From an uncultured Verrucomicrobiae bacterium (GTDB lineage: Bacteria; Verrucomicrobiota; Verrucomicrobiia; Chthoniobacterales; JAFAMB01): DNA of 64,000 nucleotides. How positions within the stretch are numbered: position 1 is the stretch's first letter; each line of letters starts with the position of its first letter. The position numbers were made by a program. Positions 32,901-35,900 of this stretch are shown here, in pieces. The DNA is taken from positions 3,552,001-3,616,000 of the forward strand of contig CAWIPH010000002.1 in assembly GCA_963837955.1 (NCBI GenBank). The letters run 5' to 3'.

Positions 32901-35900
32901 ACCACATCCACTCGATGATAACTCAATCCGAGATTTGGTAGTCTTGATGATGAGCACCCCTAACTACCAGGTATGTTAGCTAATTTTCGCAAGCGGTTGT
33001 AGTAGTCGTGAGCGCCAATGGGGCCAGCGCGTTGGAGCAGCACTCAGTTGCGCCCTGTCGACTTGCCTCAGTCGCCTGATTCAGAACCGACTCCCAGTTT
33101 CTATTTCGCGGAGCTGATTGAGACATCGCGCTTGTGCAAATCAGAGTGAATCGGCGCGGTCGCTTACTGACCAGCTGCTCCAAAAAAATGGGCGATTTCT
33201 TCCCACTCGATCGCGGTTTGCCGGCCCTGATCAAATTCCTGGATCATCCAATCGAAGGCTCTCCTGACTCGTGGATCGTCTTTGGCAAAACGGTCCTGCA
33301 GGCGCTGATGCGCTGCGAAAATGAGTCCGGCCAGACCAGAATCTTTAGTAAGTGACACCTCCAAGGGGCGGCCGAGTAATCGAGGCACGTCAAACGGCGC
33401 ATACATCCACCAGAATTTGTTGAGCCCGTCGGCGTGAATTCCGGCTCGCGTCCGGTGTGCATCCCGTCCGTAAAGCGGCGCCTTTTCCGGAATAGGTTGA
33501 CCAAGAGAAGTGTACAGCTCAGCTAGCTCGTTCAATGCCGTAAAATCCGGCTGTACTTCCGCGAAAAATCCCATGCCGATCAAATGCATCAGCACCAGCT
33601 CCAACGGCGCGTTGCCGGTCCTCTCTCCTTTACCCAAACAGGTCCCGTTGATCACTCCACAGCCATTTCGTATCGCGGCCAGACAATTAGCGGTAATTAA
33701 GCCCGTATCATTGTGAGGGTGGAACTCGAGATCGGCAGGCTCCAATCCTGCTTTGATTAATTCCTGAAAAAGTTTCGGTATACCTCGCGGAAGCGGAACG
33801 TCCTGATCGGGTAAGCCGAGCCCAAGGGTATCGCATAAGCGAAACTTGGGTCTAACGCTTTCCGGAAAACCGACGGATTTCTTCCGCACGGCGTCGACGA
33901 AGTAAAGGATAAAGTCGATTGAGGCGCGCGTTGCATCTTCAAGGTGCAGGCGCGGACGGATCCCGGTATCCAATACCATCTGCACCGCATCCAGATAGAG
34001 CGACGCCGCCTGGTTTCGTCCTCCCGGACTAAATTTATGAAATACGTGATAGTCAGAAATCGAAGCGAGAAGCCCCGATTCGCGTACGCCAAGGGACTGG
34101 ATCAGCCTTACGTCTTTGGTCGACGCCCGAATCCAGGTCGTTGGCTCTATCGGGTGACCACCCCGAAACATTTCTTGCACTTGCCGTAGCGCGTCCAGGT
34201 CGGAGCGGCGATAAACAAAAAACTCCGCTTGGCGAATGGCACCCGAATCCCGCGTGAATTGGCACAGGATTTCGTAGATTCGGATGCTCTGCTCCGTGGT
34301 AAGCGGCAATCCCCCCTGCTGCCCATCACGATGGGTAGTTTCTGTCACCCAAACTTGGGTCGGTAACCCTGGCGGGCGCGTCTGCCAGCTGTACTGAGGA
34401 AAAGTCTCCTTCGGAAACTGTTGTTCAAAATATTCGGGTCCCTGGTTGATCACCGGTGCCGAGGGTATCGCTGACATAAACCAGCGAAGTTCAGTCTCGC
34501 CTTGTCGTCAATGTTGATTCATAAATCAATCTATCTTCCACTCCCCCATGAAGATTCACTTAACCGCCGCTGAGGCAGCCGATTTTCTGAACGTCAGCAA
34601 AGCGACCCTTTACGCGTACGTCAGTCGCGGGCTCGTTCGATCAGAATATGGCGCCGATCAGCGTTCGCGTGTTTATCATCGCCTGGACCTCGAGAGATTA
34701 AAGCAGCGCAAAAGAATCAGGCAGGAACCCTCAGAGGAGATGTCGAGCGCTTTGCACTGGGGTAGTCCTCTGCTGGATTCCGGCCTCACGTTGATCACGG
34801 ACGGCCAAATGTTTTATCGCGGCAAAGAAGCAACCGCCTTGGCGTCCTCCCAAACTTTCCTGGAAGTCGCGACCTGGTTCTGGACTGGTAATAAGGGAGT
34901 ACCCAAGAGCAGCCGTCCGATGCACGCTCCAAAAGAAAAGCATAGAGAACCAATTCTTTCTTATCATGAAGGACTATTGCGAGCCGCGCTGACCGAACCT
35001 CTTGGGTATGATTTTTCGCCACCGAACCTGGTCGAAAATGGAATACACATCCTCTCCCTCTTTCTTCAAATATTAACCCGAAAGCCGAATCCCAGTGTGA
35101 GCCAAACGGCTCGCGAGCTGCGGAAAGCGTGGTGTCCTGGCAAGGCCTACGCCGAAAGAGTAATTGATGCGGCGCTTATTCTCTCGATCGATCACGAGCT
35201 GAACGTTTCATCTTTCACCGCTCGGGTCGTTTGTTCGGCGGGCACTAGCATCTACGAAGTCGTCAGCGCGGCGTTGTGCGCATTGCGGGGCAGCCGCCAC
35301 GGCGGCGCAATCGAGCGAGCGAGCAAATTACTAGTCGAGATGCAAGGGTCGTCCTCCGTTCGCGGGTTCCTCCTCCAGCGCATCCGAGCCGGTATCGAGA
35401 TACCGGGATTCGGGCATCCTCTTTATCCGGATGGAGATCCGCGAGCCGCCAAGCTGTTCGATTTACTTAATCAATACTTCGCGACCGACGCACGACCCTG
35501 GCTGGAGATAGTTACGAGCGCAGCCAAAGTACTGAAACGAAAACCAAATATTGATCTCGCTCTAGCAGCCTGCTCATTGAGCCTCCGTCTTCCACCGCAT
35601 GCGGCTTTTGCTCTTTTTGCTCTTGGAAGAACTGCCGGTTGGATTGCCCACGCCGCTGAGCAAACGCAAAGCGGAAAGCTCATTCGTCCGCGAGCACGCT
35701 ACAGCGGTCCGCTACCGGTAGACGAAAAGAACATCGATCTCCTCTAGGTGACCATCACCACCCGAATCGAAAGTAACTGTCAGAAGATCCAAGGGATCAT
35801 ACGTTTTGTCCGCGCCGCGTACTGTCGGTAATCCTCCCCAAAATTATTCATTAACACAGATTCCTCGACCGAAATGCGAATCGAGTAAGCCGTCAGGCAG

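Follow-up and report, generated by a model that had tools for sequence, protein, structure and literature searches.

A citrate-synthase-fold protein with an N-terminal winged helix-turn-helix as a candidate one-component regulator

What is the function of a protein that carries a DNA-binding head in front of a whole citrate synthase (CS)? The question is raised by a divergent gene pair in a window of 64,000 nucleotides from the genome of an uncultured Verrucomicrobiae bacterium, in which a gene for such a fusion, P0001, faces a gene for a condensing enzyme, P0002, across a short gap. We estimate a probability of about 0.7 that P0001 acts locally as a one-component transcription regulator, with the whole citrate-synthase body as its sensor, a reading that draws on domain content, residue conservation and an operator-like site. 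The features that bear on it are the following.

34548..35747, + strand: HTH-citrate-synthase fusion gene, P0001, 399 aa (ORF, translation, Pfam, AlphaFold)
34560..34712, + strand: winged HTH, N-terminal, residues 5-55 of P0001 (HTH_17, MerR_1, Foldseek)
34761..35693, + strand: complete citrate-synthase fold, residues 72-382 of P0001 (Pfam, alignment, Foldseek)
33164..34477, − strand: P0002, HMGL-like (DRE-TIM) acyl-CoA:2-oxoacid condensing enzyme, 437 aa (Pfam, PDB match, relatives' labels)
34478..34547, no strand: divergent intergenic region, 70 bp (sequence)
34507..34529, no strand: operator-like site, 23 bp, GTCAATgTTGATTcataAATCAA, arranged as GTCAAT-g-TTGATT-cata-AATCAA (sequence, family conservation)

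A helix-turn-helix head on a complete citrate-synthase body

Pfam assigns residues 5-55 of P0001 to HTH_17 (E 7e-8, 33.0 bits against a cut-off of 27) and residues 72-382 to Citrate_synt (PF00285; model positions 4-357 of 357, E 5.7e-58, 197.1 bits). The protein also barely reaches the cut-off of MerR_1 (22.3 against 21.6 bits) and misses that of PF00376 MerR (19.6 against 28.2 bits). The AlphaFold model of P0001 has a pLDDT of 90, and that of the HTH domain a pLDDT of 82. In Foldseek comparisons, the full model matches M. tuberculosis CitA and solved citrate synthase structures with TM values of 0.69-0.75. The head is a beta-alpha-alpha-beta-beta unit that leads into a long helix (residues 45-71), and it resembles the DNA-binding domains of MerR-family proteins, BldC and Xis (TMq 0.55-0.64, probability 1.0, with weak E values of 0.02-0.07). 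Within the N-terminus of the fusion family the HTH residues are the best-conserved part, and L14, L21, Y22, Y24, S26, R27 and G28 are invariant in alignments of 37 and of 27 sequences.

An earlier note on this DNA had described an HTH_17 domain and a full citrate-synthase domain in one protein, divergent from an HMGL-like gene, with His-His-Asp motifs preserved and with two ordinary CS genes elsewhere in the genome. This description holds: both Pfam matches were reproduced, the two ORFs have their outer ends at 33164 and 35747, the stretches HGGA, GFGHP and NID align with the motifs of the solved citrate synthases 2p2w and 6abx, and the two additional genes encode a type-II CS and a PrpC that adjoins PrpB.

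Aligned to the CS motifs, P0001 keeps H251, H290, D336, R299, R361 and R380, which we take to be the equivalents of pig H274, H320, D375, R329, R401 and R421, respectively. R382 was considered as the counterpart of pig Arg421 and rejected, as alignment with ordinary citrate synthases gives R380; R382 belongs instead to a set of invariants that the fusion family displays beside its catalytic residues (R/K at 250, L292, R382, A383). Of the 47 family members, 43, 46 and 43 have the His, His and Asp of the triad, respectively, and all 47 have the substrate arginines. Four members of one clade (L039, L042, L048 and L053) have Gln at the position of H251 and Phe at that of D336 while retaining the HTH.

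The rest of the body has moved far from its relatives. Over a set of 89 CS-conserved positions, defined as those shared by at least seven of eight ordinary citrate synthases (the 598-aa ORF L091 was left out), P0001 holds 45; in the fusion family, 29 of the 89 are kept at 90% or more and 41 fall to less than 50%. P0001 lies below the cut-off of all 22 NCBIfam models for CS and citryl-CoA lyase, the best being TIGR01800 (144.5 against 421.3 bits); the CS and the PrpC encoded in the same genome both exceed their cut-offs (477.7 against 421.3 and 588.9 against 550 bits, respectively). Sequence divergence of the fusion also outpaces that of the housekeeping CS and that of the divergent partner. 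Compared with five relatives, taken in the same order for each protein, identities are 89, 83, 82, 85 and 81% for the housekeeping CS, 87, 77, 72, 67 and 69% for the P0002-type partner, and 84, 61, 50, 49 and 50% for the fusion.

The retention of the triad and the arginines in most members would be equally expected of an active enzyme and thus counts against a pure regulator. The strongest rival explanation builds on this point. According to it, P0001 is a working citrate or acyl-CoA:2-oxoacid synthase that also binds DNA, a trigger enzyme in which turnover or substrate load sets the binding and the activity matters physiologically. The full CS fold, the triad counts and the invariance of the substrate arginines are all in its favor, and the operator-like site described below fits it equally well. 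We nevertheless consider it unlikely, considering (i) that barely half of the CS-conserved positions survive in P0001 and that family-specific changes flank the catalytic residues, (ii) the much faster divergence relative to the housekeeping CS, (iii) the wide margin by which every NCBIfam CS cut-off is missed, (iv) the clade that lacks two catalytic residues but has kept its HTH, and (v) the CS and PrpC already present in the genome.

The divergent partner and its replacement at other loci

Residues 44-320 of P0002 match HMGL-like in Pfam (E 7.9e-30), and its translation contains RDGxQ and HxH, presumably the metal motifs. The best PDB match is a homocitrate synthase, 6ktq. P0002 matches no NCBIfam equivalog, nifV coming closest with 149 against 462.9 bits. 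Several phyla have relatives of about 70% identity, which the source records label variously as 'citrate (Re)-synthase', '2-phosphinomethylmalic acid synthase', 'isopropylmalate/homocitrate/citramalate synthase' and 'pyruvate carboxyltransferase'. P0002 is like the Re-citrate synthases and 2-phosphinomethylmalate synthases in its HMGL-like/DRE-TIM fold and in having relatives that bear both names, but unlike them it is claimed by no curated model. We presume that it is a member of this Re-citrate-synthase/phosphinomethylmalate-synthase group and a candidate regulated target of P0001. With an ordinary CS and a PrpC encoded elsewhere in the genome, P0002 would be an accessory enzyme. A phosphonate link for P0002 was also considered and dropped: the genome's PF13714 matches include PrpB and isocitrate-lyase-type proteins and so do not point specifically to a PEP mutase.

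Of 15 other genomes from the organism's own family, eight carry the fusion, and seven of these eight have both a P0002-like neighbor and the palindrome of the operator-like site. A close relative of the L005/L084 type carries the fusion without the partner and without the site, and in L054 the fusion and the HMGL-like gene have both been removed by one deletion. In a sample of the order, the fusion is confined to the organism's own family, and in a phylum-wide sample it was detected in none of 400 other genomes (E ≤1e-40), so its distribution is patchy. Among the relatives listed, the HTH is present in 111 of 120, and the named records of fusion-family members all bear enzyme names.

The gene that faces the fusion changes from locus to locus. 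At 46 loci, the divergent partner is a GNAT acetyltransferase (17), an MFS_3 transporter (7), an HMGL-like enzyme (5), an ordinary CS (4), a Rieske oxygenase (3) or a CoA-transferase III (2); a malate synthase, an ATP-grasp ligase, a hydrolase, an M20 peptidase and a 118-aa protein of no assigned family occur once each, and at three loci the partner was not found. In the one MFS_3 operon that was checked (L016), a GNAT gene follows the MFS_3 gene. Partners in plasmid records are an HMGL-like enzyme, two CoA transferases, a DUF2332 protein and a porin. On a qualitative reading, acetyl- or acyl-CoA is used by five of the 12 families to which the partners belong. Judged by gene neighborhoods, such varied partners are the pattern of a portable regulator and not of a pathway enzyme.

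The pairing with the HMGL-like gene is kept in the organism's family and on a Deinococcus plasmid. Together with the single deletion that took both genes from L054 and the phosphinomethylmalate synthase label of some P0002 relatives, this is what would be expected if P0001 and P0002 were two enzymes of one pathway (for instance, a phosphonate-type or alternative tricarboxylate route) and the HTH domain were a tether or an oligomerization piece. We find this explanation improbable: elsewhere the fusion stands beside a transporter, a GNAT, a CoA transferase or an oxygenase with the same DNA site, the P0001 and P0002 genes are divergent and not co-transcribed, and conservation of the N-terminus peaks at the HTH residues.

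The operator-like site in the 70-bp gap

Positions 34514-34529, the core of the 23-bp site, form a perfect 6-4-6 palindrome. Between the site and the ATG of the fusion gene lie 18 nt, and its other end is 29 nt from the start codon of P0002. The strict palindrome has two matches in the 5.62-Mb genome, and a control pattern has none. The second match (C2:2548952) lies in a 440-bp gap, is without the GTCAAT flank, adjoins ORFs that have no NCBIfam match, and may be due to chance.

Of 47 fusion-family members from Verrucomicrobiota, Pseudomonadota and Acidobacteriota, 38 have the site in front of the gene and nine lack it; the set is not independent, as 17 of its sequences are near-identical Janthinobacterium relatives. 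Elsewhere in the same loci there are three matches in 597,273 nt, or about 0.0008 per 150 nt. GTCAAT is invariant in all 37 sites that have a complete left flank. The site also occurs in plasmid records of Deinococcus, Azospirillum and Roseomonas, and in a degenerate form in Ewingella. In a comparison of 13 loci where the partner is HMGL-like, conservation is limited to the 23 bp and does not extend into the flanks. A relaxed pattern, TTGATY-N4/5-RATCAA, finds 2-11 palindromic sites in each of five other genomes, mostly of the GATC type, and is thus too unspecific to define regulons.

A scan of the 70-bp gap for sigma-70 promoters returned no consensus promoter, and an Rfam scan of 33000-36600 returned no match at E ≤0.1. 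The reverse complement of GTCAAT contains TTGAC, and GTCAAT may thus be the −35 element of the divergent promoter instead of a protein contact. That the entire 23 bp are merely back-to-back promoters for RNA polymerase, with TTGAC and TTGATT as −35 boxes and with an HTH that binds something else or nothing, is very improbable: TTGATT does resemble a −35 hexamer and the gap holds no other promoter consensus, but the third element, AATCAA, makes the site a perfect palindrome, for which a promoter has no use; phyla that differ in promoter usage share the site, almost exclusively beside the fusion family; and the recognition stretch of the HTH is invariant in parallel with it.

A model of regulation and its relation to known systems

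The earlier note had interpreted P0001 as an enzyme-derived one-component regulator of the divergent synthase and had called this new. The interpretation is supported by the site that recurs across phyla, the varied partners, the faster divergence, and the HTH kept in the clade without the catalytic residues. The hallmarks of a one-component regulator are present at the locus: an HTH and a CS domain in one protein, with a candidate operator nearby. As to novelty, enzyme-fold one-component regulators are already known, but in the literature searched the fusion family is undescribed as a regulator.

The architecture, the fold, the site, the pairing and the varied partners are observed; binding to DNA, dimerization, the identity of the ligand and the direction of control are inferred in the following model. 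A CS-type dimer would set two MerR/Xis-type winged helices on TTGATT-N4-AATCAA, the half-site centers of which are 10 bp apart, with the invariant GTCAAT on the left. Because the site lies within the 70-bp gap shared by both genes, its occupancy would control P0001's own promoter together with that of the Re-citrate-synthase-like gene. The ligand pocket would retain the arginines that bind oxaloacetate or citrate and the His, His and Asp that face acetyl-CoA, so the most likely signal would be oxaloacetate or citrate together with acetyl- or acyl-CoA. True citrate synthases undergo a domain movement from an open to a closed state when they bind substrate, and in P0001 the same movement may re-orient the two DNA-binding heads. 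As the site would overlap the core promoters of the two genes, repression relieved by the ligand is weakly favored as the mode of action.

A bolder version of this model is possible but doubtful. It supposes that a still-catalytic citrate synthase acts as a flux-reading transcription factor, in which the enzyme closes on turnover, or when oxaloacetate and acetyl-CoA are bound together, and thereby shifts the heads, and that the family is a general acetyl-CoA/oxaloacetate switch over accessory consumers of acetyl-CoA. The consumers meant are Re-type and minor citrate synthases, malate synthase, CoA transferases and GNAT acetyltransferases. The operator of this proposal is nearly unchanged across Verrucomicrobiota, Proteobacteria, Deinococcota and Acidobacteriota.

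If P0001 and its relatives are regulators, many genes annotated as 'citrate synthase' or 'citrate synthase family protein' would not encode Krebs-cycle enzymes, and metabolic reconstructions that count fusion genes as CS copies would be wrong. An enzyme fold of central metabolism would join the few enzyme bodies that have become sensors of transcription factors. The fusion would be a candidate for building a biosensor of oxaloacetate, citrate or acetyl-CoA, and it would offer a handle on when bacteria turn on Re-type or minor citrate synthases. Given the conservation of the site, results obtained with one culturable Janthinobacterium or Massilia would transfer across several phyla.

A parallel on the side of the ligand is BzdR, described in PMC3602430 as an HTH joined to a shikimate-kinase-like domain that senses benzoyl-CoA. 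Both have an N-terminal HTH, and in the fusion family, too, an enzyme fold would sense an effector of the acyl-CoA type; BzdR has a different fold and serves one catabolic cluster, whereas the fusion family spans several phyla with one conserved site. Citrate synthase paralogues with non-enzymatic roles are the CitA, CitB and CitC proteins of Caulobacter crescentus, where citB and citC are adjacent and an E. coli gltA mutant is complemented by CitB but not by CitC, according to PMC7083601. That text names the trigger-enzyme concept and contains 0 occurrences of HTH; the moonlighting role it gives to Caulobacter CitA is not DNA binding via a fused domain, unlike that proposed for P0001.

With regard to its head, P0001 is like NmlR, SoxR, BmrR, BldC and the Pukovnik Xis, on which the N-terminal 60 residues of its predicted structure superpose (rmsd 1.3 Å over 51 columns for Xis). 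It is unlike the MerR family in having a CS fold as the effector domain in place of a small C-terminal sensor. A MerR-type operator is located between the −35 and −10 elements with a spacer of 19-20 bp; the scan of the gap upstream of P0001 shows no sigma-70-like promoter.

MocR, GabR and PdxR combine a winged HTH of the GntR type with a fold-type-I aminotransferase body, and MocR proteins do not perform normal catalysis. P0001 parallels them in its N-terminal head and whole enzyme fold, and it would parallel them in the use of that fold as effector domain, in local control, often of a divergent gene, and in an enzyme-type dimer on the operator. It differs in its MerR/Xis-type HTH_17, its enzyme fold and a catalytic triad that is mostly retained.

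PutA, BirA and NadR are trigger enzymes. Like them, P0001 has an enzyme and a DNA-binding domain in one polypeptide, and the substrate state is proposed to govern DNA binding; their activity is proven, whereas P0001 is only a possible enzyme. The window itself contains a PutA (36533-39547), which matches the bifunctional form only and scores 531 bits against a cut-off of 1750 for the trifunctional, DNA-binding form.

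Architecture of the gene pair

The earlier note's interval is filled exactly by two ORFs, which lie on opposite strands in the divergent arrangement it described and are separated by a 70-bp gap.

Features of the gene pair
33164-34477, minus strand: P0002 gene, 437-aa ORF, HMGL-like condensing enzyme
34507-34529, in the gap: operator-like sequence GTCAAT-g-TTGATT-cata-AATCAA (the site)
34514-34529, in the gap: core of the site, a perfect 6-4-6 palindrome in sequence
34548-35747, plus strand: P0001 gene, 399-aa ORF, fusion of HTH_17 and citrate synthase (CS)

The domain composition claimed for P0001 is borne out by Pfam matches to HTH_17 (residues 5-55, E 7e-8, 33.0 bits against a cut-off of 27) and to Citrate_synt (residues 72-382, whole model covered, E 5.7e-58), with which AlphaFold and Foldseek agree. 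The AlphaFold model, computed from a 37-sequence alignment (pLDDT 90, pTM 0.81), runs from a beta-alpha-alpha-beta-beta head through a long helix (45-71) and a low-confidence linker to the CS body, which matches M. tuberculosis CitA and other CS with TM scores of 0.69-0.75 (Foldseek). Modelled by itself (pLDDT 82), the head superposes on the MerR-family DNA-binding domains of NmlR, SoxR and BmrR and on BldC, RacA and Xis excisionases with weak E values (0.02-0.07), as expected for only 60 residues. Family alignments of the fusion and its relatives show L14, L21, Y22, Y24, S26, R27 and G28 of the head to be invariant (stretch TLYxYxSRG). Among solved structures, P0001 is closest to ordinary citrate synthases (2p2w, E 1e-31), and in the alignments its HGGA, GFGH, DPR, NID, R..GW.AH..EQ and RP stretches coincide with the equivalent CS motifs, including the HGGA, GFGHP and NID stretches that had been taken for catalytic ones.

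Three proteins of the 5.62-Mb genome match PF00285: the fusion and, as the earlier note had stated, two ordinary enzymes, both above curated cut-offs. These are a type-II CS (TIGR01800, 477.7 vs 421.3 bits) and a PrpC (NF009006, 588.9 vs 550 bits) that adjoins methylisocitrate lyase. P0001 falls far under every NCBIfam CS cut-off and, judging from these matches, is not needed by the genome as its citrate synthase. P0002 is HMGL-like in Pfam and reaches none of the curated NCBIfam models, the best being nifV homocitrate synthase (149 vs 462.9 bits).

A conserved DNA site with changing partners

The site ends 18 nt from the ATG of the fusion and starts 29 nt from the start codon of P0002. Its strict palindrome (spacer 4 or 5) was found twice in the whole genome, and a backwards-read control pattern was not found at all. 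The second copy (contig C2, 2548952-2548967; L057:1501-1516) has the form TTGATT-N4-AATCAA without the GTCAAT flank, sits in a 440-bp gap upstream of an ORF of at least 415 aa without an NCBIfam match, and may be due to chance.

We surveyed 47 fusion genes, from 46 public-genome loci and the window, for the pattern T[TC]GAT[TC]-N4/5-[AG]ATC[AG]A within 150 nt upstream. It is present in 38 of the 47, and the remainder of the same loci holds 3 occurrences in 597,273 nt. The GTCAAT left flank does not vary among the 37 sites whose flank is complete. The 38 site-bearing members belong to Verrucomicrobiota, Beta- and other Pseudomonadota, and one Vicinamibacterales MAG; a spacer of 5 separates the half-sites in Pseudomonadota, against 4 in Verrucomicrobiota and Vicinamibacterales. 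Among plasmid or chromid records, the site also occurs in Deinococcus (spacer 4) and in Azospirillum and Roseomonas (spacer 5), is degenerate in Ewingella, and is missing from that of Cupriavidus. When 13 loci with an HMGL-like partner were aligned on the site, conservation was confined to its 23 bp, with variable flanks. A search of the gap for a sigma-70 consensus promoter found none. A short hairpin-like element in the leader of P0002 (34483-34501, minus strand) overlaps the block AGCGAAGTTCAG, which the closest relatives (L001-L004) share and more distant ones do not.

Divergent upstream gene (partner) of the fusion at 46 loci
GNAT acetyltransferase: 17/46 (Janthinobacterium and kin, near-identical relatives)
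MFS_3 transporter: 7/46 (GNAT gene next in L016, the sole such operon checked)
HMGL-like: 5/46 (all Verrucomicrobiota)
Ordinary citrate synthase: 4/46
Rieske oxygenase: 3/46
CoA-transferase family III: 2/46
Malate synthase: 1/46 (isocitrate lyase beyond)
ATP-grasp ligase: 1/46
Hydrolase: 1/46
M20 peptidase: 1/46
118-aa protein, family not assigned: 1/46
No partner found: 3/46

On plasmids and chromids, the partner is a CoA transferase (Azospirillum, Ewingella), a DUF2332 protein (Roseomonas), a porin (Cupriavidus) or, in Deinococcus, an apparently split HMGL-like 'pyruvate carboxyltransferase' 60% identical to P0002 (residues 1-347). Site and fusion travel together while the partner changes, which by sequence comparison is the behaviour of a portable local regulator and not of a pathway enzyme. 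Among the 12 partner families are five that use acetyl- or acyl-CoA, namely HMGL-like, CS, malate synthase, CoA transferase and GNAT; on this basis we propose, as a qualitative reading, an acyl-CoA component in the signal.

In the Deinococcus sp. QL22 plasmid (L093:1595-2919), tblastn recovers the P0002-like gene in two overlapping pieces that lie in different frames (residues 1-347 and 281-429) and are annotated as a 347-aa protein and a hypothetical protein; a transposase fragment adjoins, and the gene is probably disrupted. The ordinary CS divergent from the fusion in L018 (638-1765), L029 (4814-5893) and L050 (4657-5844) has Glu in the column of the catalytic Asp, where both the housekeeping CS and the PrpC from the window's genome carry Asp.

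Enzyme or sensor

The catalytic positions are largely kept across the 47 family sequences (H251 in 43, H290 in 46, D336 in 43), and all 47 retain R299, R361, R380, E217, D297, G364, W365, H368, E371 and Q372. We aligned the family with eight ordinary CS, leaving out the mis-chosen ORF L091. Of the 89 positions conserved in at least 7/8 ordinary CS, the family keeps 29 at ≥90%, 19 at 50-90% and 41 at <50%; P0001 itself retains 45. The changes flank the catalytic residues: Leu before the first catalytic His becomes R/K (Leu kept 0/47), GFGH-R-V becomes GFGH-P-L and NVDFY becomes ND-L-A (Tyr kept 0/47), and R382 and A383 are invariant and family-specific. The retained substrate residues and changed flanking residues point to a substrate-binding frame as the most conserved feature, with the pocket around it remodelled. 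We take this as the mark of a probable ligand sensor, whether or not substrate turnover is retained.

Four members from a Bordetella/Candidimonas/Steroidobacteraceae clade (L039, L042, L048, L053) have Gln at the first catalytic His and Phe at the Asp, keep the head and lack the TTGAT/ATCAA site. Catalysis therefore seems dispensable, at least in that clade. Its fusion genes (near 6001-7215 or 1847-3040) have as neighbours a Rieske oxygenase, an FAD monooxygenase and a LysR regulator, and the protein may have been retuned as a sensor for a different ligand.

Identities to five relatives (G431, G508, G420, G465 and G532, in order) are 89, 83, 82, 85 and 81% for the housekeeping CS, 87, 77, 72, 67 and 69% for the partner, and 84, 61, 50, 49 and 50% for the fusion, making the fusion the least constrained of the three by this measure. 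Comparative evidence (the conserved site, changing partners, rates and loss of catalytic residues in one clade) supports the earlier proposal of an enzyme-derived one-component regulator.

Substrate binding closes the domains of true citrate synthases. In P0001, a CS-type dimer would present two heads to half-sites with centres 10 bp apart (11 in Proteobacteria), and binding of oxaloacetate or citrate, alone or together with acyl-CoA, would bring the CS domains into the closed state and shift the heads. Given the distances of the site from the two start codons, its occupancy would affect both promoters; ligand-relieved repression is weakly favoured as the sign of regulation.

Distribution and relation to known systems

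Among 150 other genomes sampled from the order, only the organism's own family has the fusion (8 of 15 genomes), and a phylum-wide sample of 400 further genomes yielded no match at E up to 1e-40. Four further matches in the order sample were rejected as ordinary CS, covering residues 192-389 only at 34-38% identity. A P0002-like divergent neighbour with the palindrome between accompanies the fusion in 7 of the 8 genomes; locus L084 has neither. The fusion is broken into frames in L088, and the partner in L087. In a related Verrucomicrobiae MAG (L054:5868-6413), the C-terminal 46 residues of the partner (387-432) are joined to fusion residues 258-397, apparently by one deletion of about 2 kb; since it took both 5′ halves, the gap and the operator-like site, the pair appears to have been lost jointly, or the junction is possibly an assembly artefact.

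Beside the fusion lies PutA, a classic trigger enzyme (36533-39547, plus strand; PutA_N, Pro_dh and Aldedh), which seems to have no DNA-binding domain of its own because the trifunctional DNA-binding form scores only 531 vs 1750 bits; the bifunctional model gives 674.5 bits, under its cut-off of 747. PutA and an ICMT-like methyltransferase (35780-36439) are syntenic in L001-L004 only.

MocR/GabR are enzyme-fold one-component regulators, and PutA and BirA are trigger enzymes. BzdR is likewise an enzyme-fold one-component regulator (PMC3602430), and the trigger-enzyme concept is named in PMC7083601. By analogy, P0001 would resemble MocR/GabR and BzdR as an enzyme-fold regulator or, if still active, PutA and BirA as a trigger enzyme. 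Its putative kind is thus already known; a citrate-synthase body in this role was not found described in the literature searched, subscription journals and supplements aside. Caulobacter CitC, encoded beside CitB, failed to complement an E. coli gltA mutant in a study that never mentions an HTH (PMC7083601). The divergent S. coelicolor pair SCO5831/SCO5832 is treated, in two papers, as putative citrate synthases (PMC12323332, PMC9739823).
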